DNA of 61,353 nt, counting the filler, from Gemmatimonadota bacterium (lineage in GTDB: Bacteria; 4572-55; J002): assembly GCA_003697105.1 (NCBI GenBank). It is 3 parts of 3 records of this genome, joined end to end, with 100 filler letters (N's around TTAATTAATTAA, not from the genome) between each part and the next. Parts side by side here need not be neighbours in the genome. Positions count along the whole stretch, not along the records: positions 28,618 to 37,697 come from RFFQ01000182.1; 2 more parts are not named here. One strand, written 5' to 3'. This document shows positions 16,647 through 48,113 of the stretch, in pieces. How positions within the stretch are numbered: the first letter of the stretch is position 1; each line of letters opens with the position of its first letter. A program made the position numbers and the translations under genes. Below the pieces are notes generated by a model that was not told where the DNA came from, did not search any database, and saw only the letters and a program-made list of their open reading frames with translations.

Positions 16647-16722
<76 letters not shown>

Positions 16723-16730
16723 GGGTAATA

Positions 16731-28517: not shown

Positions 28518-28617
28518 NNNNNNNNNNNNNNNNNNNNNNNNNNNNNNNNNNNNNNNNNNNNTTAATTAATTAANNNNNNNNNNNNNNNNNNNNNNNNNNN
28601 NNNNNNNNNNNNNNNNN
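28518..28617. other. Artificial contig-joining spacer
   Basis: N-run with a central TTAATTAATTAA six-frame stop linker. Confidence 0.98.
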
Positions 28618-29537
28618 GCATAATCAATCTGAAACATACGGACGTTAAGCCCCGCGCCATACGTCATATCCCCTTCTTGATTACCCAACCGGAGTGCTAC
28701 CCGTTGCCCCAGGCGATACTCTAACCCGAAATACAAATCCCCGCTAACGGTATCACTGCCGAACTGCGCGGCGCTATTTCGCCCTTCAAACAACGTATTG
28801 AGGTCTCCGCTGAGGGTTACTTCCCCCAGCGGTGCGCCGGTTGTGAAGGCAAATCCCAACCGTAAACTTGGAGTGATGGTCTCCGTGGTACTCTCTTCGG
28901 TATCCCACACCAACGGGCTGGAGGTTGCATCTTTGAGCACGACGCCGACCAGCAGTCGCGGTGAAAGGGCATAAATGGCACCGACATCTAACCCTAACCC
29001 CCACGCATGATTATCAACCGTTTTTTTGTAGATCATCTTGACCGAACCGCCCACTTTCAACTTTAAGCTAAGATGGCGTCCATAGGAAAAATAGAGGGCA
29101 TTTTGGGCATCACTGCTCATTTTAATGTTGTCCAAATTGAGGGTTTCACCGGGGTCGAGGACGCCATTGCCATTTAGGTCATTCAAGGCACCGGTCGTCA
29201 CCGGAATATCACCGATACTGAGCCGCACCAAACTGAGAGATAACGTACCGTTTTCACCAAAAGGTTGGGCATATGCGCCATAATCGTAATTGGCAATATC
29301 GCCAAATTGCTCCGCGTGCATTAATACCAATTCCCGTTCGCCCACCCAAGAAAGTCCGGCAGGATTCCAGTAGCTGGCAGTGGCATCATCTGCCAAACCC
29401 GTATAAGCACTACCCATACCCAATGCCCGGGCGCCAACACCTAAACTGAGAAACTCCCCAGCGTATTTTGTGGCGTAACTCTGGGAACCCCATCCCACCA
29501 AAATAATAAGCACCAGTAAGGCGGTTTTCCGTAACAT
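28618..29537 (-). CDS. PorV/PorQ-like outer-membrane beta-barrel, 3'-truncated by the contig end
   Basis: FLSLGVGARALGMG, ASYWNPAGL, GLDVG, ALRLG, GAGL...QIDY. Confidence 0.82.
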
Positions 29538-29891
29538 GATCTCCTCCGTAAAACGTAAAGCGTCAGTTTTTTAGGATGTATTAAACCCCCCTTAGGCAGA
29601 AATGATGCCACGATAGCACCCGTCCCGTAAAATCCGCCCAAACATCAGAAATAGACTAACCTGTGAACGGTTTGCACGAGAGATTATTCGCCCCGGAAGC
29701 GAAGAATATCCCCCTGAAACTGTGGCAATTAATCGACAATGTACCCGAACGAATGACCTGATGAACCGCGCCAACCGGTTGCCAAGACACTGGTTTACAT
29801 CCAAAAAAGCCTTGACGGAAAATGGTAAACATGCTAGAGTTTTACTCTATTTGAGCCTTATTGTTTCGGATTACATCTTTAGGATAACCAC

Positions 29892-30950
29892 ATGGCAACT
29901 ACATCTTTACACCCGCCGGATCCGATTGCGGTAGTCGCACTGGGTGGTAATGCGATTACCCGCAAGGGTGAAGAAGGCAACATCCAACAGCAATTTGCTA
30001 ATACCCGTCAAGCCTTACCGGCAATTGTAGAACTCATCCAACGAGGGTATCGGGTCGTGATAACTCACGGCAATGGTCCTCAGGTAGGCAATCTGTTCTT
30101 GATGGTCGAAGCCACGCACGATTTCATCCCCGAATTACCTTTGGGAGTGTGTGTCGCTGATACACAAGGGCAAATGGGCTATATGATCCAGCAAAGTTTA
30201 CAGAATTTTCTTCGAGCGGGCGGCATCTCAACCCCAGTCGTCACCGTCGTGACACAGGTCGTCGTTGACCGCCAAGACCCCTCCTTTGACCACCCAACTA
30301 AACCTATCGGTAAATTCTACTCCCCCGAGGAAGCCGCCCAAATTCAAGCCGAAAAAGGTTATCACATGGTCGAAGATAGTGGGCGAGGTTGGCGAATCGT
30401 CGTGCCCTCACCTAAACCGGTGAAGGTGGTCGAAAAAGAGGTCATCTCCATGCTGTTAGAACACAATGTAATTGTGATCGCGGTGGGAGGTGGGGGTATT
30501 CCCGTGATCGAATTAGCAGAAAATCCAACAGACCCGCCTGACATTAAACACGATAAACAAAAACGTGCTCAGATTTTAGGCTTGGATTTAGCACCGGAAA
30601 TTTATGATGGGGTCGATGTTGTGATCGATAAAGATTTAGCCTCAGCCGTACTGGCAAATAACATTGGGGCGGATATGTTGATCATTTTAACCGGCGTCGA
30701 TCAAGTTTGTTTGAATTTTGGCAAACCAGAGGCAACACAGCTTGATCGATTAACACCCGCACAAGCCCAACGTTATTTAGCCGAGGGTCATTTCCCGCCG
30801 GGGAGTATGGGACCCAAAATTGAAGCCGCGGTCTCTTTTATTGAAAATGGCGGTAAAGAAGTCCTGATTACCTCGCTGGAACGCATCCGCGAGGCGTTGG
30901 ACGGGAAAACCGGTACCCGGTTGGGTGCTGAAACGGAACCCCTAAAGTGA
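29892..30950 (+). CDS. arcC: Carbamate kinase
   Basis: VALGGNA, THGNGPQVG, PTKPIG, VPSPKP, GGGGIPV, VIDKD, GSMGPK. Confidence 0.95.
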   Translation: MATTSLHPPDPIAVVALGGNAITRKGEEGNIQQQFANTRQALPAIVELIQRGYRVVITHGNGPQVGNLFLMVEATHDFIPELPLGVCVADTQGQMGYMIQQSLQNFLRAGGISTPVVTVVTQVVVDRQDPSFDHPTKPIGKFYSPEEAAQIQAEKGYHMVEDSGRGWRIVVPSPKPVKVVEKEVISMLLEHNVIVIAVGGGGIPVIELAENPTDPPDIKHDKQKRAQILGLDLAPEIYDGVDVVIDKDLASAVLANNIGADMLIILTGVDQVCLNFGKPEATQLDRLTPAQAQRYLAEGHFPPGSMGPKIEAAVSFIENGGKEVLITSLERIREALDGKTGTRLGAETEPLK

Positions 30951-30957
30951 GAAAATC

Positions 30958-32460
30958 ATGTTTAAAAAAGTACTCATCGCCAATCGGGGCGAAATTGCGG
31001 TTCGTGTGATGCGCGCATGCCGTGAAATGGGCATGAAATCCGTCGCGATTTATTCCGATGCCGACCGCATTGCGCGGCATGTCCGATTCGCAGATGAAGC
31101 CTACCGGGTCGGTGAACCCCCTTCCATTGAAAGTTATCTGCGGATGGAACGTATCATTGAGGTGGCGAGACAAGCCAACGCGGACGCCATCCATCCCGGC
31201 TACGGTTTTCTAGCCGAAAATGCCACCTTCGCGGAACAGTGCGAACAAAACGGTATCACCTTCGTCGGTCCCCCCTCCGGCGCCATTAGCGCCATGGGCG
31301 ATAAAATCACGGCACGAGATTTAGCCGCCAAAGCCAACGTACCGGTGGTACCGGGTGCAAATTTCTCTCTGGAAGATGAACCAATGGCGCGGAACATCGC
31401 CCACGAAATCGGATACCCCATCCTATTAAAGAGTGCCGGCGGTGGCGGCGGTAAAGGGATACGGATTGTCCGCCAACCGGAGGATTTGGAACGCTCTCTC
31501 CGCTCGGCACGCCATGAAGCGTATGCCGCGTTTGGCGATGATCGCGTGTATATGGAAAAATACATCGAAAATCCCCGCCATATCGAAATCCAAATCTTAG
31601 CAGATAAACACGGCAATGTGATTCATTTAGGTGAACGAGAATGTTCCATCCAACGGCGACACCAAAAATTGATTGAAGAAGCCCCCTCACCGGTCGTCTC
31701 GCCGGAAATGCGCCAACAGATGGGGGAATGTGCCATCCGCATTGCGAAAGCGGCGAATTATGTCAATGCCGGAACCGTCGAATTTATTGTTGATCCGGCG
31801 TTGAATTTTTATTTTTTAGAGATGAACACCCGGTTGCAAGTGGAACATCCGGTCACCGAACGTATTACCGGCTTGGACATTGTTAAAGAGCAATTTCAGA
31901 TTGCCGCCGGTCAGCCCCTCTCGATTTCGCAGAACGATGTCCAATTTCAGGGATGGGCAATTGAGTGCCGCATCAATGCGGAAGACCCGCTGAACCAGTT
32001 CCTACCATCCATCGGAAAGATTGAACAGCTAAACGAACCCGGCGGGAACGGCATCCGGGTGGATAGCGGTATCATCGAGGGGTGTACCGTCAGTGAATAT
32101 TACGACCCCATGCTGGCAAAATTGATTGTCTGGGCGCGATCCCGCACCGAGGCGATTGATCGAATGCGTTATGCCCTCCGGGAATTTCGGTTGGAAGGCA
32201 TTGCCACCAATGTCCCCTTTCACCAATTTGTAATGGAAGATGACGATTTCCGCGCCGGTCAAATTGATACCCACTATCTGGAGCGCAAATCCTTTGAAAT
32301 GACCATCGACCCCGCATTGGCGGAAGCCGCCGCGATAGCAGTCGCGTTGGAGGTTCACCAAGCACGAATGCAAGCCTCCCCAACCGCACCCTCCGCGCCA
32401 TTATCTGGGGCAGCCAATATGTGGAAAATGTCCGGTCGGCTCTCTCGTCTGCGGTACTGA
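30958..32460 (+). CDS. accC: Biotin carboxylase subunit of an acyl-CoA/pyruvate carboxylase
   Basis: KKVLIANRGEIA, HPGYGFLAEN, GGGGKG, ECSIQRRHQK, EMNTRLQVEHP, YYDPMLAK. Confidence 0.93.
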   Translation: MFKKVLIANRGEIAVRVMRACREMGMKSVAIYSDADRIARHVRFADEAYRVGEPPSIESYLRMERIIEVARQANADAIHPGYGFLAENATFAEQCEQNGITFVGPPSGAISAMGDKITARDLAAKANVPVVPGANFSLEDEPMARNIAHEIGYPILLKSAGGGGGKGIRIVRQPEDLERSLRSARHEAYAAFGDDRVYMEKYIENPRHIEIQILADKHGNVIHLGERECSIQRRHQKLIEEAPSPVVSPEMRQQMGECAIRIAKAANYVNAGTVEFIVDPALNFYFLEMNTRLQVEHPVTERITGLDIVKEQFQIAAGQPLSISQNDVQFQGWAIECRINAEDPLNQFLPSIGKIEQLNEPGGNGIRVDSGIIEGCTVSEYYDPMLAKLIVWARSRTEAIDRMRYALREFRLEGIATNVPFHQFVMEDDDFRAGQIDTHYLERKSFEMTIDPALAEAAAIAVALEVHQARMQASPTAPSAPLSGAANMWKMSGRLSRLRY

Positions 32461-32479
32461 GAAGGGGAGGAGCAAACCG

Positions 32480-33283
32480 ATGCAACTGGAAGGTCCGGTT
32501 CGACGATTCCAACTGGCACACGTTTACCGGGAATTGGCATACGAACGCCAAACCGGCATGTTGATCGTCAGTGATCGCAACCGCCAAGCCGGCATCTATT
32601 TTAGTAATGGACAACTTGTGTTCGCCAAACAATCCAGCCAGCAAGACCGGTTGGGAGACCGGTTGGTTGCCAAAGGATATATCACCGAGGATCAACTGCG
32701 GGAGGCAATCACCATCCAACGCCGTTCCGATGAAACCCGCCGGTTAGGGCGGATTTTGATCGATGAACAGTTCGTGGGAGCCGCCATCATAGAGCAGTTG
32801 ATGCAGGATCAAATTAAAGAGGTCGTGCTTGAAGTCTTGGATTGGAATTCCGGCACATACCGGTTTATGACCGGCATGTCCCCCCCAGAAGAAGATGTCC
32901 TTCTTCAGATAGCTATTGAAAATTTGATCTTGGAAGGTCTGCGGCGCCGGGTCCAATGGGAAGATGTTCGGACGGATTTTGTCCCCGCCGAAACCGTTTT
33001 CGGATTGAAACCTCGGCCCAATAGGGCGGATATTACCTTGCACCTCACTGCTGAAGAATGGAACACCCTGACGCAGGTCAATGGTATCCGGACGCTGGAC
33101 GAACTCCGAAAAACATCGACCTTAGATGCCGATGAGACCGGGCGAATCCTGTATATTTTGTACCAAACCGGACTTATCCATCCCGTCAACGGAACGCTTG
33201 TAGAAGATAAACTGCACCTCAGCGAGAAAGTAGCACACCTGAACCAGCTCTTGGAGGCATTTTTGACTACTGCAAAGGCGTAA
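32480..33283 (+). CDS. DUF4388-domain protein with MshEN-like (RLG) repeats
   Basis: MQLEG...RQTGML...IYFSNGQLVFA N-terminus; RLGDRLVAKGYITEDQLREAITIQ and RLGRILI; WNSGTYRF; ENLILEGLRR. Confidence 0.8.
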   Translation: MQLEGPVRRFQLAHVYRELAYERQTGMLIVSDRNRQAGIYFSNGQLVFAKQSSQQDRLGDRLVAKGYITEDQLREAITIQRRSDETRRLGRILIDEQFVGAAIIEQLMQDQIKEVVLEVLDWNSGTYRFMTGMSPPEEDVLLQIAIENLILEGLRRRVQWEDVRTDFVPAETVFGLKPRPNRADITLHLTAEEWNTLTQVNGIRTLDELRKTSTLDADETGRILYILYQTGLIHPVNGTLVEDKLHLSEKVAHLNQLLEAFLTTAKA

Positions 33284-33286
33284 TTC

Positions 33287-34012
33287 ATGCCGGAAACTGC
33301 GTACCAGCATCTTATCGCGACATTGGATGCAAGCTTAGAGCGCATCCTGCAAGCCTTTTTTGCGGAAGACCCCCGCCGGGTATCATTTGATGTGGAAACG
33401 TGGATGTCACAAATGAACTCGGTCGCGCAAAGTTATGTGGCACCCGTCCAAAAGCTGATGCGCTTACAGCACCTTCTCGACGATGCCGGGGAGCAATTCC
33501 AATCGGGTGAATTGCCACTGCCGGTCTTACAACGCCTAATGCAATTGCTCACCGATCTGCGAACCTCCCGCTTTTCCGGTGAATTTTACCATGCCATTCA
33601 AACCGGTGAAGTGCAAGCGGAACAGATAGACCACTTATTAAACGGTATTTTCCGATTTATCATCCTCCACACCCCGGAAACCGAACTGCTGATCCCCGGG
33701 GAAAAAGGACAATGGCAACAGGTGGTACTCCACAAAGGGGAAATCCACCCAGAAGACCACGAAAAAGAATTTTTAAGCTACTTATTAACCTACCAAATTG
33801 ACGCCTTGTTGCATCGCTACCACGAACAAGATCGATTGTATGACATCGCAAACGAACATCTACACGTCCTCGAAGAACGTTATTCCCGCGAGGATGAGCT
33901 TTTCGTGGGGATGATGATTTACTATTTGCAGCTACGCCACCAACCGGTTGACGATCTCATCCGGCGCTTCAAGGCGATACGGCAAGCACAACCGGATTTT
34001 ATTGACTTTTGA
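33287..34012 (+). CDS. Hypothetical all-helical protein
   Basis: 241-aa ORF 3 bp after the DUF4388 gene and abutting the next gene; no motif recognised. Confidence 0.7.
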   Translation: MPETAYQHLIATLDASLERILQAFFAEDPRRVSFDVETWMSQMNSVAQSYVAPVQKLMRLQHLLDDAGEQFQSGELPLPVLQRLMQLLTDLRTSRFSGEFYHAIQTGEVQAEQIDHLLNGIFRFIILHTPETELLIPGEKGQWQQVVLHKGEIHPEDHEKEFLSYLLTYQIDALLHRYHEQDRLYDIANEHLHVLEERYSREDELFVGMMIYYLQLRHQPVDDLIRRFKAIRQAQPDFIDF

Positions 34013-34032
34013 CGGGAGCCATCCACAACATC

Positions 34033-36114
34033 ATGAGTTTCCTAGACCAAAAATTGATTCCACATTATGTGTTCGATACCTATGTGGTGGGGCACAATAA
34101 TCGATTAGCATTTGCTGCCGCTAAGGGTGTAGCAGAGAACCCGGCTTATACGTACAACCCCTTATTCATTTACAGCAGTGTAGGGTTAGGCAAAACGCAC
34201 CTATTGAACGCCATTGGCAACGCAATCGTTCAGAGTAACCCGCAAATGAAAGTGGTATATAGCTCGCTAGAAGTGGTGATGGAGAGCCTCACCGGGCACA
34301 TGAGCCGGGGTACTCTAAATGAATTTCGATTCTCATTTGAAGAAATTGATGTCTTGCTCCTCGATGATGTCCAGTTTTTAATTGGGCGTGAAGAAAAGCA
34401 AGAAGAATTTATCCGTATTTTTGATATGCTGTTGATGAATTTAAAACAACTGGTCTTTACCTCGGATCGTCCCCCAACGGATATGACCACCCTAGAAGAA
34501 CGGTTGCGTTCTCGCTTTCAGGGCGGATTGATCGTTGATATCCAACATCCCGATTTAGAAACACGAATCGCCATCCTCCAACGAAAAATTAAAGAAACCG
34601 GACGTACAGTACCCCCCGAAGTCGTCCATAAAATTGCCGAGAATGTCCCGACCAATGTGCGGGAATTAGAAGGCGCTTTGAACAAAGTATTGGCACATGC
34701 CCTGCTGACCGACCGCGAGATTTCGCTGGAAGTCGCCCGTGAAGCATTGGGTGAAAAACCCGCCCCAGCGCCGGAAGTCAAAACGCTGGAAGAATTCCAA
34801 AAAGAACAAGAAGCCCTTTCCAACGAATTTTCGGACTTTTTGAGCGGCGTTTCCGAAAAAGTGGAAGGTATCGCCATCGAAATCAGCCAACACCAACGCG
34901 AAAAAGATGAACTCCGCGAAAAAATTAAAATGTGGGAGCATCGTGGATTTGAGGTCGATAGCATCCGCCAAGCACTCCGCGGCACCATAGAAGATGCCAA
35001 ACGTGCCTATCAGGAATTTGAACAAAACGTGCACCGGCTTATGGAATTACAAGACGAACTTAGCGCACTGGAGGTGCCCAAAGAGGAACTATTTGAGGTT
35101 CGCCGAATTCAAGCCCGCTTATTTGATCCAGCCGCCGTGGCGTGGTGTGAGCAAGCCATCGCGACCCTACGGGAAAAGTTGGAAACCGAACAGTTTGATT
35201 TTGACCTCCCCCTAGATGATTATCATTTTGAAGATTATATCGTGGGCGAAAGCAACAAAATGGTCTATCGGGCGGCACAATTGATCGCGGAAGCGCCGGG
35301 TGAACGCTATAACCCGCTGTTTATTCACGGAGGCGTCGGCGTGGGGAAAACACATCTGCTCAATGCCATCGGAAACCGTATCCTCCAAAAGTACCCTCAG
35401 CGGAAAGTGGCGTACCTCAGTGCCGAAAAATTCACCAATGAACTGATTCAGGCAATTAGTGATAATCAAGTAGAGAAATTTCGAGCGAAATACCGGTCAG
35501 TGGATGTACTTATGATCGATGACATTCAATTTTTAGCCGGGCGGGAACGCACGCAGGAGGAATTTTTCCACTCCTTCAATGCCCTGTACACCGTCCATAA
35601 GGCGATCATCCTGACCAGTGATCGCTCCCCCAAAGAACTTACCACACTGGAAGACCGCCTCCGATCCCGCTTTGAAGGCGGATTAGTTGCGGAAATCAAA
35701 GCCCCGACTAAAGAAGTCCGTACCCAGTTGATTGAACGCATTTTAACCCGCGAAAACATTACGATGGAGCCGGCGCTGATCAACCATATCGCCGATACCA
35801 TCCAGACCAATATCCGCGAGTTGATCGGCGCCGTAAACCGGATTGTTGCCAACTGCGTCCTCAATGATCTACCCCCGACCCAGGAGATCGTTGATGCGGT
35901 ACTGGTCGAGGTTGCCGGGACAAGCAAACCCGCCGTCACCGCTGCAACCCCCGCAGGACAAGCGCCGATTTCCACATGGGAACAGACACTGTTGGCACAG
36001 ATTCCGAAAATCGAACAGCACTGGCGAACCCTAGATGTGTTACTGCATCATGACTACCTAACAGATGAATATCGTGTGGAAAAAGTGCTCCAACTGGCTG
36101 ATGATAATAGCTAA
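34033..36114 (+). CDS. Tandem DnaA-type AAA+ ATPase (two domain-III modules, no domain I or IV)
   Basis: Module 1: YNPLFIYSSVGLGKT, LLLDD, RLRSRF, NVRELEG. Module 2: YNPLFIHGGVGVGKT, LMIDD, RLRSRF, NIRELIG. Helical linker between them. Alternative TTG start at 34009. Confidence 0.88.
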   Translation: MSFLDQKLIPHYVFDTYVVGHNNRLAFAAAKGVAENPAYTYNPLFIYSSVGLGKTHLLNAIGNAIVQSNPQMKVVYSSLEVVMESLTGHMSRGTLNEFRFSFEEIDVLLLDDVQFLIGREEKQEEFIRIFDMLLMNLKQLVFTSDRPPTDMTTLEERLRSRFQGGLIVDIQHPDLETRIAILQRKIKETGRTVPPEVVHKIAENVPTNVRELEGALNKVLAHALLTDREISLEVAREALGEKPAPAPEVKTLEEFQKEQEALSNEFSDFLSGVSEKVEGIAIEISQHQREKDELREKIKMWEHRGFEVDSIRQALRGTIEDAKRAYQEFEQNVHRLMELQDELSALEVPKEELFEVRRIQARLFDPAAVAWCEQAIATLREKLETEQFDFDLPLDDYHFEDYIVGESNKMVYRAAQLIAEAPGERYNPLFIHGGVGVGKTHLLNAIGNRILQKYPQRKVAYLSAEKFTNELIQAISDNQVEKFRAKYRSVDVLMIDDIQFLAGRERTQEEFFHSFNALYTVHKAIILTSDRSPKELTTLEDRLRSRFEGGLVAEIKAPTKEVRTQLIERILTRENITMEPALINHIADTIQTNIRELIGAVNRIVANCVLNDLPPTQEIVDAVLVEVAGTSKPAVTAATPAGQAPISTWEQTLLAQIPKIEQHWRTLDVLLHHDYLTDEYRVEKVLQLADDNS

Positions 36115-36619
36115 CCTTGGCATTTTGGTAGGGATAGGGGGATGCCAGCCTCAGGCGGACGTGCGGCAGACGACATCCAAAACCGGGAAAATAGAGCCGG
36201 ATATTCAGACCTGCTTCCCGATCTTACCTGCGACGGTGCGCACAGTGCCCACTCGCATCGATTCGCTCACCCACCCCTGGGTCTTCCAACGGCTGGGAAC
36301 GGTAGCACCGGAGATTCACCCCCTAGATCAGGCTCGCGCGACCTATTCCTTGGAGGGGGATTCCGTGGAAGTAACCCTTTTTGAATTTGATAGCCTGAAA
36401 ACGGCACGTCACTGGATTTCCACGTTAAATGATGCCGGTTGCCAACCGGATTCCACATGGGGCAACGGTGGTTTTTATGATACATTTACCATTGCTTTCC
36501 GTGACGGTGTCTATGGCGTACATTTACAACGGTTTTCCCGCTCCGACACTGGCCGGATAATTATGCACCAATTGGCGGCAAAACTCGACGAACTTTTGAC
36601 CCGAAAGGATACCCTGTGA
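36101..36619 (+). CDS. Putative lipoprotein
   Basis: Hydrophobic N-terminus ending in a lipobox-like IGGC; overlaps both neighbours. Confidence 0.6.
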   Translation: MIIANLGILVGIGGCQPQADVRQTTSKTGKIEPDIQTCFPILPATVRTVPTRIDSLTHPWVFQRLGTVAPEIHPLDQARATYSLEGDSVEVTLFEFDSLKTARHWISTLNDAGCQPDSTWGNGGFYDTFTIAFRDGVYGVHLQRFSRSDTGRIIMHQLAAKLDELLTRKDTL

Positions 36620-37590
36620 AATATGTTTGGCTATATGGACTCATCCTACTAATACACCTCGCTTCTGCCAAAGGTAGCCCAGCCGCACAAGCTCTGGTGA
36701 ACAATATGGGATTAAGTGGCGGACTGGCAGAATGGTCACCGGATGGGCGGCAACTCGTTTTTGTGTCCACCGAAGGGTCCCGGCGCGGTATGGCAACCAA
36801 TCTCTGGATTATCAACGCCAACGGTAGTGGCAAAAAAATGATTACCGATAATAGTTCTTGGGATAGTTATCCTTCGTGGTCGCCGGATGGAACACGCATT
36901 ATCTATTCCTCACACCCAGATGGTCGCCCGAAAGAGCGGCATCTTTGGGTGATAAACCGCAACGGAAGTAACAAACAGCGCCTATCCACCCCTGTGAGCA
37001 ATCCAACCGCCCCGCAAATTTCACCTTCAGGACGCGAAGTCCTCTTTGTCTCAGGCGATAACCGTATCTGGAAAATGAATCTGGATGGCACAAATGCCTG
37101 CCAACTGACTCACCAAAAATCAACCCATCCCAGTTGGTCACCCAATGGACGGCATATCCTATTTGCGCAATACAGTCCCAAAACCCGTTACGACATCTGG
37201 GTGATGGATGCCGACGGCGAAAACCCACGACCCATTTCCACAGACATGCACAATGAATCCCACCCGCGCCTTTCACCCGACGGGTCAATGATTCTTTATG
37301 AAGTGTGGGATTTGCAAACCCGCTCCCGGCGCATCTGGGTCATGAATGCGGACGGAACCAATAAACACCCCTTGAACACAGGTGGTCAAGAAGATGGAAT
37401 GCCGCGGTGGTCACCGGACGGTCACATGATAGTTTTCAATTCCTGGGACCAACAAGAGCACAACCGGTTACAAATCCTTCCGGCGCCGCGTCCACCGTCA
37501 CAACCGCGATCGCTGCCCCGCCCCGTCCGGGTAATCCCCCCACGCCAACAGTGGACCACGGATAAAACCCCCGTGAAGCCCGCTACCCCC
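36616..37590 (+). CDS. Secreted TolB-like beta-propeller (PD40 repeats); 3' end unresolved
   Basis: Six W/ISPxG repeats with IWVMNADG-type segments; runs into poly-C at the contig end. Confidence 0.85.
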
Positions 37591-37697
37591 CCACCCCCCC
37601 CCCCCCCCCCCCACCCCCCCCCCCGCCCCCCCCCCCCCCCCCACCCCCCCCCCCCCCCCCCCACCCCCCCCCCCCCCCCCCCCCACCCCCCCCCCCC
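37585..37697. other. Poly-C low-complexity contig end (probable sequencing artefact)
   Basis: More than 100 nt of almost pure C directly before the spacer. Confidence 0.8.
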
Positions 37698-37797
37698 NNN
37701 NNNNNNNNNNNNNNNNNNNNNNNNNNNNNNNNNNNNNNNNNTTAATTAATTAANNNNNNNNNNNNNNNNNNNNNNNNNNNNNNNNNNNNNNNNNNNN
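37698..37797. other. Artificial contig-joining spacer
   Basis: N-run with a TTAATTAATTAA linker. Confidence 0.98.
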
Positions 37798-38016: not shown

Positions 38017-41000
38017 ATGAAATTCATTATCTTCATTTTACTCTCAAGCCTGATTATCGTTTCCGGTATGTGGGGGCTGGAAGCGGCGGAGTTACCGGAG
38101 TTGGAAGCCCAGATTCAGTATGAGAGCCACAAACTGGAACAGGTAACACAAGCCCTCCATGCGCTCCAAAACACCGGCGATACCTCTCCGTTTGAGGTGG
38201 CAGAGATTCTCTTTGCGGCAGGACTATATGCCGCTGCCGCTCCGCTGTATAAACAGGTGATCTCTGATACCACGTTGAGCCATGATGTGGATTTAGCGTA
38301 TTTTCGGTTGATTCGGCTTTCTTACGCGTTACATCAATTTGAAAATCTGCGTGCCTACCATGCCAGTTTGATCCGGAATTACCCCCATTCCCAGTGGGTT
38401 TCATTAGCAAGTTATCTAGCCGCCCTTAGTTACTATCAAGAACGAGATTGGCAAGGGGTTACCCGCACCGCACAATGGGTCGTAGCGGAACATCCGGCAT
38501 ATAGTTATGCCCAACATCTACTGGGACATAGTTATCTCCAATTGAATCAATATGAGGCTGCCGAGGTTGCCTTTCAAAATGCGCTGAAAACCTCAGCCGG
38601 TGACGCCCTTTGTGAAAAAGCCCGGTTTGGCTTGGCGGAAACATACCGGCGTACTCAAAAATATGATCAAGCATTGAATTTTTATCAGATGATTTCAACA
38701 AAAAGTGCGATTTACCCGGATGTACGGTTTGCCCAAGGCTGGCTGTTGATCGAACAGGGTAACATCGAGGCCGGATCCCTTGTATTACAGCAAGTCATGA
38801 CGGACTTTCCACGAACCCCAGCGGCGGCAAATGCGGCGGTTGCCTTAGGACATCTAGCTTTAAACCAACATCAATATGTGCGAGCAGACGATTTATACCA
38901 TACGGCAATTATGGATTTTATTGCGATCAATCCATTTTATCTTCCGGCGGAGCAGGCATTGGTGCGTAAAATTGCCGCTGAGAAAAAGTGGATTGCGATG
39001 CAAAAGGTCAAATTAGCCAGCATGACCGAAAATGCCGGTGATGACTGGGCATTTCAGGCTAAAATTTACGATCAGATGGATGTCTTGGAAGCGTTGACCA
39101 GTGAAATTACCGAACTGGAAGTACAATTGACCGGCACCCAGATCGAAGCAAAACGAGAACGGTTGTTGAACGAAATTGCAAGCGAACAAAATCGGGTTTG
39201 GGAACTCCAAAATGCCCTCAGTCAATTACAACAACGGGGACAACTCGCCGTACAGGCAACTACCGTCGAGACCGAGTTGCAAGCCCTCATCCATGCGTTA
39301 GATGACTTGGAATACTCATATAATGACTTCCAGTATGAGAAAATTCAGCAACTTGCTGATGCGGAATATGGCTTAGTTGCGACAGCATACGCGATGGCGG
39401 CAGAGGGGTTGATCCCTTATGAAATGGCGGCTCATCGTCACCAAACCTTTTTGGATATTTATCCCAACAGTAAATATTTACCCCGCGTATTATTGCAAGC
39501 CGCGGAATTGGCATACCTTATTGAGCATGAAAAATTTTTAGCCGGATGGGTCGAGCAACCCGATCACCGGCAAGCACTCCGCTATTACCAGCAGGTGATC
39601 GATTTTGATCCACAAGGCGAGTTGGCAGAAGCGGCATATTATGGTGCGGGCTATTGCTACAGCGAAATGGGTGATTTGGAAGCCGCCGCCACCACATTTG
39701 AGGCACTTGTTACCGCGTTTCCAACCAGTATGTATGCCGCCGATAGTTACCTGCGTTGGGGGGACGCTTTGCTTGCACTCAATCAGCCCGAACAGGCGGC
39801 AGAAGCCTATCAAGCGGTGTTGCCCTTTGAAGAAGACCCGCTTTCTGCACGAGCGTTGTTCCGGTTAGGGAAAATGTACTACCAAATGGAAGCCTACGAA
39901 CAGTCCATCACGGCATTTGCTCAAGTGGTGGATGATCAGCATTACCGGGCGTTGATTACTCCTGAAGAATATCAGCAAGCACAGCATTGGGTACTCAATA
40001 GTTTGCTTACCTTTGAAGATGCGCCAGAAGTTGCCCGCCGTACCCTACAACGTGCCGGAGCGCAGACCTATGCTTACGAGGTAATGACCCGTTTAGCCGA
40101 GGTTTATCAGGTATTGGATAAGACAGATGCCGCGTTCGCCATGTACCAACACCTTCTGGAGATGGCACCGTTGCACCCGCACGCACCCCAAATTAGCCTG
40201 AAAATGATAAATTGTAAGGATTCATTGAATGTCGATCAACTCTGGCGGCAAAAGCGGCTTGTTTTTGAACGATACCAACCCCACAGTGAGTGGTACCGGG
40301 CACAGTCCCCGGAAGTCCAGCAGCGCACGGCTCAATGGGTAGAAGATGGGATGTACACCCTTGCCGCTGAGGCGCACCAACAAGGGCATTATCGTGACGC
40401 GATTGAGCTATATTCACAATTTCTGACATACTTTCCAAAGTCGGAACGTGCCCTAGCTGTCAACTTTTATCGCGGAGAATGTTATTGGGAAATGGGGCAA
40501 TTTGAGAAGGCACGGCTCGATTACCAATTTGTGGCACTTGCTCCCGACAATCCCTTTCATGTGGATGCCGCGTACACCGTCATTGCTTGCTTGGATACTC
40601 TGAACCGTATTGCCCCCAATCCCCAAACTGAATATGAATTGTTACAAGCTTGCACCAAATTTATCAAATTGACCTCAGATGACCCCCGCCGGGCTGAGGT
40701 CCTGCTGAAGCAAGGTGAACTGTATTTGAACCAACATGACTACGACCGCGCCGCGGAGATTTATACGTATGTCGCGCAAAATTATCAGGCAGACCCTGAT
40801 GTCTATCCGGTAGCACTGGAACTGACCGTGCATGCTTATGAACTCGCGGGGAAACGGGATGTAGCCACATCCTGGCGCCAACAAATTTATGCCGATAACC
40901 GCGTTGGTACGGCATTAAAAGCTAAAATGCGTGACCAATTGCGGGCAGATGTTTACCGGCAGGTAAATGATTTGAAGGCGCAAGGTGACCTGCTGGGTGC

Positions 41001-42306
41001 CGTCGCAGAGCTTGAACGCTTTGCGGCGTCGCACTCCGATTGGGTAGCGGTCGATGTCCTTTGGTGGGATGCCGCACAACTGGGTCGGCAAGCCGGTACG
41101 TGGGATCAGGCGGCTCGGTGCTATCAACGAATCGTTCAAGATTATCCGGCGTCGGAATATGTGCCGCGGGCGCTGTTTCGGTGGGGGGAATGCTTGAGCG
41201 AGATGGAAGATTGGCGGTCTGCGCGAGATGTGTTTTTAGCCTTTGCCCAGCGGTATCCGGATCAGGAACTGGTATTGGAAGCTCGCTGCCGGGCAGTATT
41301 GGCATTGACCCAAACAAATCCAGATGAAAACCGAATCCGGCAGGAATGCCAAATGATCCTTGCGGAGTCACCCTCTCCCATCGCTTCGTTGACAGATCGA
41401 TTGTGGTTAGCGCGTTGTGCTTATCTGCTGGCAGAAATGGATTACGAGGCATTCCAGACGATTGCACTCGTAGAACCGCTCGACCAGAATTTTGCCGCCA
41501 AACAGCATCACATGGATAATGCGTTGCATCAGTATAGCCGTGTGGTCGATCTGGCAGTGGCAGAGACAACACTACCGGCGTTGTTTCGTATTGGGCAGAT
41601 TTATGAGCGCTTTTTAGTCGATTTATGGACATCGGAACGCCCGGCTGGTTTGGATGAGGCGGAACGGATGGCGTATAACGTCCAGTTGGAGGACCAATTA
41701 ATCGCCTACGAAGCAAAAGCACTGGCGGCATATCAGGCAGTACAAGCGCAAGCGGCTGCAAATCAATTAGCGGCGGATTGGCAGTACCGGGCGCAAACTC
41801 GGGAGACCCAAATCAAACAGCGGCTCTATTTGGAAACGGAGCAGGTGGTGAGCGATGCCCAGTGGAAGGTCAGCGTGGAGGACGTTCCGCACTGGATAGA
41901 TACGCATTTTGACGATCAAAATTGGCAGTCTGTTAAGACTGTACCAGCGCCGGGCATCACCAGCGTTGTCGCCTTTACTTCTTTAAGCGAAGCGGCGGCA
42001 TCGGCGTGGGTGTGGTATCCCGAACCCATCCCGCAGATTCGTCTGCGCCGTACATTTACGCAAGGGCTAGTACCCTTGCCACATGACCTCAATATTTGGA
42101 GCATCACCCCGCCACGAGTATGGATCAATGGCGAGGCGGTTGTTTTGCACCGTACACAACAGGCAATGCAGTACCGGGCGGAAATCACCCCCTATTTACA
42201 AGCCGGGCTCAACGCCATTGCGATTGAGGCGACCATTCCCTCACCAAGCCAGCAGGGCATCCGGATTGAAAGCCGCCCGCAGATGATGCAGTCCCGCCAC
42301 GAATAG
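38017..42306 (+). CDS. Large secreted multi-TPR protein with coiled coil and C-terminal beta-sandwich domain
   Basis: Signal peptide; many TPRs with 'YPxS' caps; C-terminal WKVS...WIDTHFDDQNW...RLRRTF...VWING...LQAGLNAIAIE as in glycosidase jelly-roll domains. Confidence 0.85.
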   Translation: MKFIIFILLSSLIIVSGMWGLEAAELPELEAQIQYESHKLEQVTQALHALQNTGDTSPFEVAEILFAAGLYAAAAPLYKQVISDTTLSHDVDLAYFRLIRLSYALHQFENLRAYHASLIRNYPHSQWVSLASYLAALSYYQERDWQGVTRTAQWVVAEHPAYSYAQHLLGHSYLQLNQYEAAEVAFQNALKTSAGDALCEKARFGLAETYRRTQKYDQALNFYQMISTKSAIYPDVRFAQGWLLIEQGNIEAGSLVLQQVMTDFPRTPAAANAAVALGHLALNQHQYVRADDLYHTAIMDFIAINPFYLPAEQALVRKIAAEKKWIAMQKVKLASMTENAGDDWAFQAKIYDQMDVLEALTSEITELEVQLTGTQIEAKRERLLNEIASEQNRVWELQNALSQLQQRGQLAVQATTVETELQALIHALDDLEYSYNDFQYEKIQQLADAEYGLVATAYAMAAEGLIPYEMAAHRHQTFLDIYPNSKYLPRVLLQAAELAYLIEHEKFLAGWVEQPDHRQALRYYQQVIDFDPQGELAEAAYYGAGYCYSEMGDLEAAATTFEALVTAFPTSMYAADSYLRWGDALLALNQPEQAAEAYQAVLPFEEDPLSARALFRLGKMYYQMEAYEQSITAFAQVVDDQHYRALITPEEYQQAQHWVLNSLLTFEDAPEVARRTLQRAGAQTYAYEVMTRLAEVYQVLDKTDAAFAMYQHLLEMAPLHPHAPQISLKMINCKDSLNVDQLWRQKRLVFERYQPHSEWYRAQSPEVQQRTAQWVEDGMYTLAAEAHQQGHYRDAIELYSQFLTYFPKSERALAVNFYRGECYWEMGQFEKARLDYQFVALAPDNPFHVDAAYTVIACLDTLNRIAPNPQTEYELLQACTKFIKLTSDDPRRAEVLLKQGELYLNQHDYDRAAEIYTYVAQNYQADPDVYPVALELTVHAYELAGKRDVATSWRQQIYADNRVGTALKAKMRDQLRADVYRQVNDLKAQGDLLGAVAELERFAASHSDWVAVDVLWWDAAQLGRQAGTWDQAARCYQRIVQDYPASEYVPRALFRWGECLSEMEDWRSARDVFLAFAQRYPDQELVLEARCRAVLALTQTNPDENRIRQECQMILAESPSPIASLTDRLWLARCAYLLAEMDYEAFQTIALVEPLDQNFAAKQHHMDNALHQYSRVVDLAVAETTLPALFRIGQIYERFLVDLWTSERPAGLDEAERMAYNVQLEDQLIAYEAKALAAYQAVQAQAAANQLAADWQYRAQTRETQIKQRLYLETEQVVSDAQWKVSVEDVPHWIDTHFDDQNWQSVKTVPAPGITSVVAFTSLSEAAASAWVWYPEPIPQIRLRRTFTQGLVPLPHDLNIWSITPPRVWINGEAVVLHRTQQAMQYRAEITPYLQAGLNAIAIEATIPSPSQQGIRIESRPQMMQSRHE

Positions 42307-44209: not shown

Positions 44210-44319
44210 CCAAACTCCCAAATCAGGATTTAGGGATTAGGATTTAGGGGTTCATGTAATTCTCTAACTCCCGAACTCCTCAACTCCCAGATTCCTCAAC
44301 TCCCAAACTCCCCAACTCA
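44210..44319 (+). repeat. Composite repeat, copy 2 (direct repeat of 43545-43646)
   Basis: ccaaactcccaaatcaggatttagggattaggatttaggggttcatgtaattc; 3 mismatches in 53 bp against copy 1, then octamers. Confidence 0.9.
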
Positions 44320-46095
44320 TTCCGGTTTAATGGCTTCAAAATAGTCTTTCACATATCCTTGATAGCCACGCGGTATTTCGGCTTGATTGAGCGCCGCTTC
44401 AGCCGCCTGCCGGTAGTCTAGGTACATTTCATAGGCGGGTCGATTTGCGATTTCGCCACTTGGTAAGGCCGTTGTCTCGGCTTGTCCGGCGAACTCACCC
44501 TCGCCTAATTTTCCGGTAACTCGTGTTCCTTTGGTGGTGACTTCTGTTCGACGGGGGTCATACAACCGGTGGTAGGCTTCCACCTGAGAGCGGGGGGCTT
44601 CACCTTGCCGATGTTGCTGTGAGGGTTCGTTTTTTACTTCCTTGCCGGATTCCTGTGCCAAATTGGTAGATTCTGTTCCCCAGTCACCTGTACCGGATTG
44701 AGCATGTCCTTGCCCAGAAGCGTTTTGTGGTTGGGGCGTACCCCCTGATACCGCCTCTTCCGGTGACGTTCCAGATTGCGGGTTTTGTTCGGATGGATTG
44801 GATGTGCCGGATGGCTCGCCATCTTGCCCAATTTGACCGGATGAGATACTGGGATTATCATCAAAGGTTTGGGCATATTTCTCCGCCTGTTGCATTTGCT
44901 GCGAAGCACCGGCGATGGTTTGCTTGCTATCCCGTACCTGATCGAGTGCTTCCTGCATTGCCTGATGTTGGGCGAGCTGTTGCTCGGCAGATTTCATTTC
45001 CTGTTCTAATGCCGCTATGGCGTCCTCAATGGCATCTGCCGCCTCCTGTTGATCACCTTGATCGAGTTCAGCGGCAGCATCCGCTAGATGATCTCCTGCT
45101 GTTTCCATGTCCATCTGATCCAAATTTTGGGACATGTGATCGAGAGCTTTTGCGACATCTTTTTGTTCCGATTTGGTAAAAGACTCGTTTTGTAATGCCT
45201 GCGAGAGTTTTTCTAATTGTCGTTTGGCTTTTGCGAGTTCCTGCGCTTTTTGTGAGGCGAGCCGGTGCCGGTTTACATCTGCGGTTTGGTTTTCTGCCAG
45301 TTCATTTGTCGAATTGTTTTGTGCCGCTTCTAGCTGTTTCACCGCCTGACGGAGCTTCTTTGTATCCCATTGCGCCAGTTCTTGTTTTTGCTGTTCCGTA
45401 ATCTGTTGTTCCATTTGGGAGAGCTTGCGGAGTGCTTCTTTTTTATCGATTTGCTGTTTTTGGAGCTGTTTGGCAATTTGCTTCATCTTTTCTGCCATCT
45501 TTCGTACCTCATCCAACTCTTTTTCAATCGCCTTATCTTGAAGCTGGCCGGCGTATTTTTCCAGTTCTTTTGCCTCTTTGTGAATGAGTGCTACGGTATC
45601 GGGGTCTGTTGGCGCGGAGTGTCCGGGAAAATCTGGCAATACAATAAGCCCGATCAACAGCACACCCAGAGAGAACACCCAACGGGATTGGCGAGGCAAA
45701 ACGTACGGTACCACGCTTTGGGGGTCCAGTTGGTTGGCGATAGTGCGGGCATCATCTAACAGGGGTTTGGTAAAAGGGGAGATCGGATCGGCAGCGAATT
45801 CCAAAGCACTGCTAAGCCGTTCTTGTGAATGGGTGCGGGCATCTGCCACCCGGGCGGCATGGCTACGGGTAACCGGTTTCATCATGCCGCTGAATATTCC
45901 GCCTGCCATGCCGGCGGCGATTATCCCCCAACACATCAGCCCGACCGGTAGAGGTACTACTATCCCCTTGGAAAGCATCACCAGCCCACAGCAGAGCGCA
46001 AGGCTGATCAGCAAGAAAAATACAATCTGCTGAATGAGATGCACCCAACGCAGCCGCCGCTGAATCTGATCCAATTTGTAATAGAGGGATTCCAT
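44317..46095 (-). CDS. Membrane-anchored coiled-coil protein of the type found in MoxR/vWA/DUF58 clusters
   Basis: Three TMs, ERLSSALEF, long coiled coil, G/S/Q-rich linker, C-terminal IPRGYQGYVKDYF. Start at ATG 46095 after AAAGGA. Confidence 0.78.
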   Translation of the reverse strand: MESLYYKLDQIQRRLRWVHLIQQIVFFLLISLALCCGLVMLSKGIVVPLPVGLMCWGIIAAGMAGGIFSGMMKPVTRSHAARVADARTHSQERLSSALEFAADPISPFTKPLLDDARTIANQLDPQSVVPYVLPRQSRWVFSLGVLLIGLIVLPDFPGHSAPTDPDTVALIHKEAKELEKYAGQLQDKAIEKELDEVRKMAEKMKQIAKQLQKQQIDKKEALRKLSQMEQQITEQQKQELAQWDTKKLRQAVKQLEAAQNNSTNELAENQTADVNRHRLASQKAQELAKAKRQLEKLSQALQNESFTKSEQKDVAKALDHMSQNLDQMDMETAGDHLADAAAELDQGDQQEAADAIEDAIAALEQEMKSAEQQLAQHQAMQEALDQVRDSKQTIAGASQQMQQAEKYAQTFDDNPSISSGQIGQDGEPSGTSNPSEQNPQSGTSPEEAVSGGTPQPQNASGQGHAQSGTGDWGTESTNLAQESGKEVKNEPSQQHRQGEAPRSQVEAYHRLYDPRRTEVTTKGTRVTGKLGEGEFAGQAETTALPSGEIANRPAYEMYLDYRQAAEAALNQAEIPRGYQGYVKDYFEAIKPE

Positions 46096-46228
46096 GACAT
46101 ATCCTTTGTTCATCAACTCATAACAGCCAACTGTTGGAATGTAACGAGTCTGGTAGGTGGGTGTCAATGAAAAAGCCTGTGAACCCTTAAATGGTGCACA
46201 GGCGTATTCTAAAGCTATTGAACCTTGG

Positions 46229-47437
46229 CTATGCCGCCGTATGGGGGGGTTGTTTTAACTCCTCCAGTAGGGTATGTACCGCTTGTTCCCCGTTCGTATC
46301 ATTGGTTTGCCGGTAGATTTTCAAAGCGTCCTCGGCAAGTTTTCGGGCTAATTCGGGGCGTTGTTCCGCTTGATACACCCGTGCCAAACCCAAATTGGCA
46401 CCTGCCATAAGATGGCTCAGGGTGGTATCCTCAGCGGCAAGTGAGATCGTTTTGATGTACCATTTACTAGCATCGCCCCAATCCTTTTGGGTCAATGCCA
46501 ACTGTCCCAAATTATAGCTGTATTCGGCTTGTTTTGCTGTTTTTCTGACCCGTTCCGCCAGATAAAATGCGTGCTTAAAATATTGCTGGGCAATCTCCGG
46601 CTTGTGTTGGTGTTGAGCGTATTCTCCCAACCGATTATAGACCATTCCGAAAATATCGTAATAAATATCCCGGTCAAAACTGGGGTCTTTGCGGATAAAC
46701 TGGTGTACTGCCAGCTGAACGTCTTCCAATAATTTCGATTTTTCTGGGGTATCGTCCGGTTCACCAATCCACGTGTCTTGGCTGATAATATTTTCGTCGG
46801 AAAGTTGCTGAATAATAAAATCTAAGTCCCGGTATTGTACCAGTTCCCGGATAATCAGGGAATAGCGCCCGGAATTCCCCCAGAGGGTGAAATCCATACT
46901 CAGTTTTTTCTTTTCTTCTTGGGTGAGATCATGAATTCCTTGCAGAATAAACTCGGCTTCATTCTGGAAGCGCTCTTTATCAATGATGTTGTTGTGGAGT
47001 TTTTTGATTTCGCGGTCGATACGCTGGGTCAGTTTGCGGTTGATGGAGGTATTGAGGTAATCGTAAATGAAATCCCGAAGTGTTTTGAGTTGGGGCGTAT
47101 TTTCCCCTTGGGAGACGGTCGGCACTGCCACGGTGGAGATCACGCCAATAAACAGCCCAGCCCCCAATAAGCTTTGCAAACTTTTGTTTAGGAAGAGGTC
47201 ATTCCCAAAACTGATGCCCAGCGCCGCCAGAGCATACGTAACCCCCGCCGCACCACAGGCAGAAACAAACACGTAAAAATAGGCGGAAAAAAATCCGGCA
47301 AGATACCGTTGGGTGGTTGGATACTTGCGGGCTAAATCCACCCATGCAAAGATAATCCCCAAAAAAAAGCCCCACACTGCCGGATTCACGGTGGCGGGGT
47401 TAACCAGATTTTGTAAGGTTGAAAGTACCGTTGCCAT
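46229..47437 (-). CDS. Protein with about 3 N-terminal TM segments and C-terminal TPRs
   Basis: Three hydrophobic segments in residues 20-105; TPRs VYNRLG, YSYNLGQLA, ANLGLARVY. Confidence 0.75.
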   Translation of the reverse strand: MATVLSTLQNLVNPATVNPAVWGFFLGIIFAWVDLARKYPTTQRYLAGFFSAYFYVFVSACGAAGVTYALAALGISFGNDLFLNKSLQSLLGAGLFIGVISTVAVPTVSQGENTPQLKTLRDFIYDYLNTSINRKLTQRIDREIKKLHNNIIDKERFQNEAEFILQGIHDLTQEEKKKLSMDFTLWGNSGRYSLIIRELVQYRDLDFIIQQLSDENIISQDTWIGEPDDTPEKSKLLEDVQLAVHQFIRKDPSFDRDIYYDIFGMVYNRLGEYAQHQHKPEIAQQYFKHAFYLAERVRKTAKQAEYSYNLGQLALTQKDWGDASKWYIKTISLAAEDTTLSHLMAGANLGLARVYQAEQRPELARKLAEDALKIYRQTNDTNGEQAVHTLLEELKQPPHTAA

Positions 47438-47440
47438 GAG

Positions 47441-48028
47441 TTATTTTTGTTTAACCTGTTGGATGACGTTGGCGATGGTCGAAAAGGGATCAGTGGTGAT
47501 ATTCGGAATCTCAACCACATATTTGCTCTCCAAAAAGAGCGGGAAATGCGGCTTTTTCGGGGTGAGCACCAGATGAATGAAGGGGATATTTTGCTGGCTC
47601 AGTTCGATCAATACCCGGGCGAGGTCGTTATCGCGCCAAGGCTCCACATGCCCGGTCACGATCAATCCGGTTTCAAAAGTGCAAGTCATCCCCGAAATAA
47701 GCGCGTTCCAATCATCAAAAATGGAAAGCTGGTAATCCTGCATCAAATGGGTTTTGGTTTGTTCGGCAAATTCAGCGTCTTCCCGGTGATAGCCAAGGAA
47801 GGCATCAAAATGATGCTCGGGGGCACTCTGTTTGGTTATTGGGGGAGTGGCATTTAGTTGCTGGATTATTTTCAGTTCCCGCTGAAGTTCCTTGAGTTCG
47901 GATTCCGTTGATTCGATTTGCTTTGCCAGCTTAAATTTAAGGGCGGAATCCGTTTCGTGAATATAGGCTTGTCGTAGCCGGGTTAATTTCTCGTTTAGAA
48001 GCTCGTGAAGATCGCCTCGTTTATTCAT
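47441..48028 (-). CDS. TIR-like domain protein with N-terminal helical hairpin
   Basis: FDAFLGYHREDAEFA...IFDDWNALISG matches the bacterial TIR N-terminus; GAGGTGG RBS before ATG 48028. Confidence 0.7.
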   Translation of the reverse strand: MNKRGDLHELLNEKLTRLRQAYIHETDSALKFKLAKQIESTESELKELQRELKIIQQLNATPPITKQSAPEHHFDAFLGYHREDAEFAEQTKTHLMQDYQLSIFDDWNALISGMTCTFETGLIVTGHVEPWRDNDLARVLIELSQQNIPFIHLVLTPKKPHFPLFLESKYVVEIPNITTDPFSTIANVIQQVKQK

Positions 48029-48113
48029 GTTCCACCTCAGTTTCCTCAAATACGTTCCGCGCTATTTCATTTTCTCATTGTAAACCGGTGGCGGATGCTT
48101 GTCAACGGAAATA

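Follow-up and report, generated by a model that had tools for sequence, protein, structure and literature searches.

The 61,353-nucleotide (nt) stretch of DNA analysed here, hereafter called the window, comes from the assembly of a Gemmatimonadota bacterium (GCA_003697105.1). It includes five consecutive genes that encode a PATAN/DUF4388 protein with a motif pair of the cyclic di-GMP (c-di-GMP) type (gene 1), an orphan protein (gene 2), an ATPase with two DnaA-type domains (gene 3), a putative lipoprotein (gene 4), and a beta-propeller (gene 5). Two questions are raised by this locus: what a tandem DnaA ATPase might do in a window that also carries a standard dnaA gene, and whether its neighbours take part in the same process. 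Judging from its sequence, gene 3 might encode a DnaA-mimicking accessory factor or regulator of replication initiation, a reading that we favour tentatively and to which we give somewhat less than an even chance.

Gene 3 belongs to an uncharacterised protein family that is common in Gemmatimonadota. Pfam recognises Bac_DnaA twice in this protein (E-value 2.4e-126) and matches neither DnaA_N (PF11638) nor Bac_DnaA_C (PF08299), which bears out the description of gene 3 as a tandem DnaA ATPase in the initial annotation of the locus. The DnaA model TIGR00362 yields 633 bits in two stretches, and the best solved relatives are the DnaA chains 8btg and 8bv3. The Hda model TIGR03420 reaches 183.2 bits when summed over two stretches, which is below its cut-off of 194.8 bits, and the models for IstB (106.6 bits), DnaI (74.6 bits), and DnaC (34.4 bits) are likewise all under their cut-offs. 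Structurally, the protein is organised as an N-module, a family-specific linker, a C-module, and a C-terminal tail (Table 1). The N-module and the C-module share 48.7% and 47.5% identity, respectively, with the window's own DnaA, and 45% with each other. Translation from a TTG codon at position 34009 gives 701 amino acids (aa), and translation from an ATG codon at position 34033 gives 693 aa. The ATG is the more likely start because the database copy of the protein has 693 aa and a GGGAG site is located 14 nt upstream.

Searches of Pfam and the PDB with the linker and the tail returned no match beyond coiled-coil-type noise for the linker, for which the PDB sequence search gave nothing below an E-value of 0.03, and the tail is without a Pfam match. 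The possibility that these two regions are vestigial DnaA domains was considered and rejected, given hhalign probabilities of 0.2% against domains I-II and at most 0.5% against domain IV.

The same architecture recurs throughout the family, which is represented here by the best 120 of 8,000 scored candidates. All 120 of these relatives have exactly two full domain-III matches within a length of 632-716 aa, and every one of the 11 with a named organism comes from Gemmatimonadota. Family members are named 'DnaA/Hda family protein' by NCBI. The DnaA comparison set consists of 80 dnaA loci returned by a genome-contig scan, plus the window's own DnaA. In a tree of these sequences, the N-modules, the C-modules, and the 81 ordinary DnaA proteins form three separate groups with support values of 0.85-0.97, an arrangement that fits one old duplication. 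The genome-contig scan was run with the gene 3 family alignment and used patterns shared with DnaA, and its loci, from Bacillota, Chloroflexota, and others, were taken as ordinary dnaA. All 80 match over ~0.7-1.0 kb, corresponding to one domain III, and there is no tandem locus among them. A tblastn search of plasmids with gene 3 also gave no tandem form, with none of the 107 matching records covering at least 80% of the query. We found no account of tandem DnaA-domain proteins in the literature, which is no proof that none exists.

The standard dnaA gene is located at the end of contig A, the first of the three contigs that make up the window, and encodes domains N, III, and C (DnaA_N E-value 2.1e-11). 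If the contigs share one genome, the organism therefore has a normal initiator besides gene 3.

Most of what can be said about the function of the two modules comes from comparing them with DnaA residue by residue. Positions were mapped with the dnaA record of E. coli K-12 as reference, percentages were calculated over the 120 family members, and the roles of the mapped DnaA residues are those given in passages of PMC5742627. Both modules keep Walker A and Walker B, sensor I, box VII, the arginine finger, AID-2, and sensor 2. Specifically, the equivalents of K178, D235/D236, D269, R281, R285, L290, and R334 are retained in 93-100% of sequences across both modules. The modules part company at the H-motif and the B-motif, with which DnaA grips the single strand of the origin, and at AID-1. 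At the V211 site (H-motif), the N-module carries H in 84% of the family and the C-module I in 99%. The R245 site (B-motif) is occupied by E in 97% of N-modules and by R in 98% of C-modules, and the R227 site (AID-1) by G, Q, or A in N-modules and by R in 99% of C-modules. The window's own gene 3 has T, E, and E at the V211, R245, and R227 sites of its N-module, and I, R, and R at those of its C-module. On this pattern of conservation, the two halves of gene 3 appear to show a clear division of labour. A further site, W288 in DnaA box VII, is W in 96% of the 81 DnaA proteins and G in 97-100% of both gene 3 modules.

We propose that gene 3 imitates DnaA and works on the DnaA initiation complex. 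In this scheme, the C-module would join the DnaA-ATP/single-stranded DNA (ssDNA) filament head-to-tail, and the N-module would offer or accept an arginine finger but would be unable to extend a filament bound to DNA. Because the C-module would join a filament that the N-module cannot extend, gene 3 might cap or remodel DnaA oligomers, or trigger ATP hydrolysis within them. The logic would be that of Hda or DnaC, although gene 3 is neither of these proteins. In this lineage, gene 1 and gene 2 may feed into gene 3, a suggestion that comes solely from their adjacency.

As in DnaA from B. subtilis (PDB 8btg) and E. coli, each gene 3 module is a complete domain III with its ATPase and arginine-finger residues, and the C-module shares the H-motif, B-motif, and AID-1 residues as well. 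Unlike DnaA, gene 3 has two modules per chain, no domains I and IV, and no DnaA-box-binding helix-turn-helix; in addition, both modules have G in place of W288, and the N-module is without the ssDNA residues. In DnaA, domain I is responsible for helicase and partner binding, and domain IV for DnaA-box binding. The likeness to Hda and HdaA is that of a protein made of domain III only and found with a standard dnaA in the same genome. However, gene 3 is tandem rather than single, falls below the Hda cut-off, is much closer to DnaA, and has no clamp-binding-like motif at its N-terminus. Two patterns for such a motif were tried on the family and rejected, as they match none of the 120 N-termini and only one of the 120 C-termini.

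Several points weigh against a role for gene 3 as a DnaA mimic. The mechanism is drawn from residue conservation only, and the DnaA set used for comparison is biased, consisting mostly of Bacillota and Chloroflexota sequences among the 80 scan-returned loci. The W288G replacement is a signature of the gene 3 family that could alter the oligomer interface. The lack of a clamp-binding-like motif makes an Hda-style, clamp-dependent mechanism unlikely, and the conservation of the linker and tail implies a conserved partner. The presence of a normal initiator in the same cell assumes that contig A, with dnaA, and contig B, with gene 3, belong to one organism. Finally, the link between gene 1 and gene 3 is speculative, with adjacency as its sole basis.

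The seven genes from arcC to gene 5 are all on the + strand of contig B, with successive gaps of 7, 19, 3, -4, -50, and -4 bp. The 19 bp that separate accC from gene 1 (ATG 32480) include a GGGGAGGAG ribosome-binding site. The likelier starts for the ATPase (ATG 34033) and for the lipoprotein (ATG 36101) shrink the overlaps. These coordinates and gaps confirm that five co-directional genes follow arcC and accC on one contig, as the initial annotation had stated, and the domain matches, which are far above chance, show that its list of parts (a PATAN/DUF4388 protein, an unknown protein, a tandem DnaA ATPase, a putative lipoprotein, and a PD40 propeller) was essentially right. The result is a long, tightly packed gene string that mixes unrelated functions.

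Adjacency is also the sole argument for a five-gene system, which is not shown by this locus, and adjacency is weak here. Among co-directional neighbour pairs outside the locus in the same window, 17 of 30 are separated by 20 bp or less, and the spacing within the locus is therefore not distinctive. Promoter-like sites (11, compared to 9.0 +/- 3.4 expected) and terminator-like sites (9, compared to 12.3 +/- 3.9 expected) occur at chance level. An Rfam scan of the window returned 2 tRNAs and no riboswitch or other regulatory RNA, and Pfam gave no roadblock/MglB match in any window open reading frame (ORF) that was scanned.

The spacing and the site counts give some force to the alternative in which the five genes are unrelated neighbours in a compact genome and make up no functional unit, with gene 3 using the DnaA fold outside replication for some other nucleic-acid or protein-remodelling task. 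Elsewhere in the window, the tyrS-YbbR-hydrolase-glycosyltransferases and LexA-pantothenate kinase groups are packed equally closely even though their members are unrelated, and promoter and terminator signals do not set the five genes apart. Moreover, the conserved linker and tail of gene 3 resemble nothing known. What this alternative does not readily explain is why the C-module retains, at 98-99%, the very residues with which DnaA handles origin ssDNA and makes its ATP-DnaA-specific contacts, a pattern that is hard to account for without some DnaA-like activity. We consider this alternative unlikely.

Another alternative leaves gene 3 within replication but makes it a replicative-helicase loader or primosome factor, similar to DnaC or DnaI, instead of a regulator of DnaA. 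These proteins and IstB belong to the same AAA+ clade as gene 3, their models match gene 3 at low scores, and they too lack a double-stranded DNA-binding domain and act through ATP-dependent oligomer contacts. The ssDNA-binding residues kept in the C-module would suit such a function, and we also count in its favour that loaders of the DnaC/DnaI clade dock on DnaA filaments. However, the low scores are themselves telling, with 633 bits for DnaA set against 34 for DnaC and 75 for DnaI. In addition, gene 3 has no recognisable helicase-binding N-terminal domain, and Pfam finds nothing outside the AAA+ modules. On balance, a loader of this type is improbable.

If gene 3 were under the control of a signal, gene 1 would be a candidate sensor. 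Pfam detects DUF4388 (PF14332) in two stretches of this protein (E-value 6.2e-26; 91.3 bits against a gathering threshold of 25). The motif pair consists of motif I, RLGDRLVAKGYITEDQLREAITIQ (residues 57-80), and motif II, RLGRILIDEQFVGAAIIEQLMQDQ (residues 88-111), the latter being full-length. The initial annotation had quoted the first motif, which is present as described, together with a second, partial RLG repeat; this second copy is not partial but complete. Its assignment of the RLG string to the MshEN type is backed both by NCBIfam model NF053729 ('c-di-GMP_motif, MshE-related') and by profile matches to the solved N-domains of MshE and PilF/PilB. NF053729 aligns with residues 57-111 over its entire length (profile positions 1-53 of 53) with a score of 53.4 bits, compared to a cut-off of 38, and it is matched by all eight members of the gene 1 subfamily at an E-value of 0.001 or better. 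Among solved chains, the gene 1 family profile matches PilF (6f8l_G, whole-chain E-value 4e-15), with the best stretch at 301-358 on the GSPII-C domain, as well as Geobacter PilB (1e-10) and MshE-N (5htl, 2e-9). The motif stretch, with its 7-residue spacer, aligns without gaps to both PilF GSPII-C and Geobacter PilB.

The fit to the published definition is less exact. In passages of PMC5013675, MshEN is defined by two 24-residue motifs separated by a 5-residue spacer, and a relaxed pattern is also given. Neither of the two gene 1 motifs fits the strict pattern. With the relaxed pattern, motif I fits and motif II deviates at a single site, position 10, which holds Q instead of G/A/S; both relaxed motifs are intact in just one of the eight subfamily members. 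No match to PF05157 (T2SSE_N), the C-terminal alpha/beta subdomain of MshEN, was obtained in gene 1 up to an E-value of 10. Overall, gene 1 shares with the MshEN/GSPII domains of V. cholerae MshE and T. thermophilus PilF the two 24-residue RLG...Q motifs, and differs from them in having a spacer of 7 rather than 5 residues, the Q in motif II, no C-terminal subdomain, and a motif pair located inside a PATAN domain. Text excerpted from PMC11731258 reports that GSPII-C of T. thermophilus PilF binds c-di-GMP and that motifs need not always follow the consensus exactly. For gene 1, c-di-GMP binding is thus plausible but not assured, and on its sequence features this protein could plausibly serve as a receptor for c-di-GMP or as an adaptor.

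The combination of a PATAN domain with an MshEN-type insert is already known. According to passages of one study (bioRxiv 10.1101/2021.06.11.447907), many PATAN domains have an inserted pair of helical repeats of a type with which pilus and secretion ATPases begin, GspE_N is annotated on some DUF4388 proteins, and PATAN is a protein-binding output domain, the example from PixE binding PilB1 and PilC. FrgA and PA3740 are named as MshEN proteins with uncharacterised domains in part of PMC5013675. We found no c-di-GMP binding assay on a PATAN insert in the literature. Both FrgA and PA3740 probably carry DUF4388. Gene 1 has in common with PixE, PixG, PatA, and stand-alone PATAN proteins the DUF4388 domain and the two-helical-repeat insert described in the excerpted text of the same study (bioRxiv 10.1101/2021.06.11.447907), which compares it, citing Makarova 2006, to the N1 repeats of pilus and secretion ATPases. 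It differs in having no receiver domain, in its only weakly winged-helix-like C-terminal region, and in being flanked by genes other than those for pili or MglA/MglB. The C-terminal resemblance comes from a weak MarR-type match over profile positions 180-263 (E-value 0.004), and a winged helix there is a possible lead only. Seven relatives of the PATAN subfamily are detectable, and the sole named one is from Zixiibacteriota.

Gene 2 was described as an unknown protein, and this description stands, with no match in Pfam, NCBIfam, or PADLOC. A word-index protein search with gene 2 returned itself alone. An exhaustive HMMER pass over 1.84 billion representative proteins recovered four relatives of similar length, one with an E-value of 2.9e-21 and three with E-values near 1e-4. 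An alignment with these relatives reveals a conserved C-terminal block, RYSREDELF...YYL...RF. The ESM Atlas model is of low confidence, with a pLDDT of 0.65 and no structural neighbour above a TM score of 0.35, and a PDB sequence search with the gene 2 family gave nothing below an E-value of 0.03. With the PADLOC defence models, four of the locus proteins are unmatched and gene 3 has weak generic AAA+ matches, the best with an E-value of 3e-7.

In all likelihood, genes 4 and 5 are envelope genes with no functional connection to the others. The call of gene 4 as a lipoprotein is retained as putative, as it comes from an N-terminal hydrophobic stretch, MIIANLGILVGIGGC, that ends in IGGC (a possible lipobox, read by eye). 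The ATG at 36101 is taken as its start because the Atlas copy agrees. Searches of Pfam and NCBIfam with gene 4 gave no match, and a PDB sequence search gave nothing below an E-value of 0.03. The ESM Atlas offers a lead to DUF6599 lipoproteins, with a feature score of 0.91 and TM scores of 0.61-0.62. Gene 5 has a signal-peptide-like N-terminus, and its PD40 repeats are matched as expected for the propeller that had been reported. Naming this propeller TolB was an over-call, because TIGR02800 (TolB) gives 149.8 bits against a cut-off of 343, and Pfam shows only PD40 and other propeller families, without the TolB N-terminal domain. Gene 5 is similar to TolB in being a predicted periplasmic PD40 beta-propeller with a signal peptide, but differs in lacking a match to the TolB N-terminal domain and in having no tol-pal genes nearby on contig B. 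The poly-C run that follows gene 5 is probably a sequencing or assembly artefact, and the apparent proline-rich tail of the protein is false because it is translated from this run.

With all five products in hand, the proposal that they form one signalling module can be weighed. In that proposal, c-di-GMP sensed through gene 1, or an envelope cue sensed by the envelope proteins, would control gene 3 and thereby bring polarity or motility into step with the cell cycle. The gaps of 3 and -4 bp flanking gene 2 and of -4 bp between genes 4 and 5 are what such a module might look like, a genuine MshEN-type domain is present in all eight subfamily members, and PATAN is known as a protein-protein adaptor from passages of bioRxiv 10.1101/2021.06.11.447907. 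The number of detectable lineages outside Gemmatimonadota, ~4-5 for each cytoplasmic protein, is also compatible with co-occurrence. Against this, short gaps are usual in this genome (17 of 30 other pairs), and arcC and accC are packed just as closely. Genes 4 and 5 are exported, no hydrophobic segment was seen in genes 1-3, and there is no membrane protein to connect the two sets. In addition, both relaxed MshEN motifs are intact in only 1 of 8 subfamily members. The spread of the proteins differs, with at least 120 relatives of gene 3, seven of the PATAN subfamily, and four of gene 2, which argues against an obligatory module across the gene 3 family. Gemmatimonadota-like members fill the best 120 relatives of gene 3, and no gene 1 or gene 2 relative was found there. 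As a weak indication, given that these 120 come from 8,000 scored candidates, none of the seven PATAN relatives has the contig-length fingerprint of a listed gene 3 relative. Rapid divergence of genes 1 and 2 could be hiding further relatives. Taken together, we assign a low probability to a single module of this kind.

Least probable is the combined version in which gene 3 is a covalent DnaA mimic whose C-module would enter the origin DnaA-ATP/ssDNA filament, whose DNA-blind N-module would end or fire it, whose activity would be gated by c-di-GMP through genes 1 and 2 in this lineage, and whose family would be a phylum-wide regulator of initiation, derived from DnaA, in Gemmatimonadota and related FCB bacteria.

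Table 1. Positions of the features described in the text, counted along the whole window.
Feature	Position	Strand	Description
Contig A	1-28517		
Contig B	28618-37697		9,080 bp; carries the whole five-gene locus
Contig C	37798-61353		
Spacers	28518-28617; 37698-37797		N44-TTAATTAATTAA-N44
arcC (carbamate kinase)	29892-30950	+	TIGR00746 391.1 bits (cut-off 358.25); Pfam AA_kinase match; opens the co-directional string
accC (biotin carboxylase)	30958-32460	+	TIGR00514 669.9 bits (cut-off 626.5)
Gene 1	32480-33283	+	267 aa, cytoplasmic; PATAN/DUF4388 protein with MshEN-type alpha-clip pair
MshEN-type c-di-GMP motif pair (putative)	32648-32812	+	Gene 1 residues 57-80 and 88-111; 7-residue spacer
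Gene 2	33287-34012	+	Helical 241-aa protein, lineage-restricted, no family match
Gene 3	34009-36114	+	Tandem DnaA domain-III (AAA+) protein
N-module	34036-34761	+	Full domain III; ATPase and arginine-finger residues kept; H-motif, B-motif, AID-1 lost
Family-specific linker	34762-35157	+	~130 aa; blocks EFxSFLSD, W..EGYRT..LE, FRDPER
C-module	35158-35928	+	Full domain III; all tested DnaA functional residues kept
C-terminal tail	35929-36114	+	Short, family-conserved; consensus D.fFLDdEK.VW.wpD...R
Gene 4, open frame	36065-36619	+	Likelier start at 36101
Gene 4, from ATG 36101	36101-36619	+	Putative exported lipoprotein, 172 aa; overlaps the gene 3 end
Gene 5	36616-37585	+	Secreted PD40 beta-propeller; PD40 in 4 stretches (Pfam); ORF runs to the contig B end, 3' end missing
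Poly-C run	37586-37697		112 nt at the contig B end; Tandem Repeats Finder period 1, 112 copies, 89% matches
Standard dnaA	27041-28435	+	Contig A end
PorV/PorQ-family type IX secretion gene	28618-29537	-	NF033709 112.7 bits (cut-off 90); cut by the contig B start
Subtilase	8331-10091	-	C-terminal FlgD_ig-type domain
Bacterial alpha-2-macroglobulin	10681-16536	+	1,951 aa; MG2, A2M, bait-region, TED, bMG10 domains
tRNA-Lys (CTT) and tRNA-Arg (TCG)	16647-16807	-	Adjacent
TPR-repeat protein	38017-42306	+	1,429 aa; contig C start
Four-gene cluster	44317-49001	-	DUF58/VWA protein; 202-aa protein (no significant Pfam match); TPR protein; 616-aa protein (no Pfam match)

The window is not continuous sequence, and genes on opposite sides of a spacer are therefore not neighbours. 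The GC content is 0.42-0.53 across the whole window, and the three contigs were taken as those of one organism given this range. Upstream of the co-directional string, the PorV/PorQ-family gene is divergent from arcC and separated from it by a 354-bp gap. This gene, like the Zixiibacteriota origin of the one named gene 1 relative, suggests that the bacterium is probably of the FCB type. The remaining features in Table 1 are found on the other two contigs. The four-gene cluster on contig C may resemble Bat/MoxR-type aerotolerance operons, and a long TPR-repeat protein is encoded at the start of the same contig. On contig A there are an alpha-2-macroglobulin gene, a tRNA pair, and a subtilase with a FlgD_ig-type domain; domains of this type are often secretion sorting tags in FCB-group bacteria.

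For gene 1, the two outcomes would carry different meanings. If gene 1 does not control gene 3, the locus would be an ordinary mixed operon that includes a PATAN-MshEN gene of a kind already described. If it does, c-di-GMP would be tied directly to replication initiation. The regulators of DnaA vary by group: Proteobacteria have Hda, and Bacillota have YabA, SirA, and Soj. For most phyla, no such regulator is known. The gene 3 family offers a specific and testable candidate for a factor that regulates or assists replication initiation in Gemmatimonadota.

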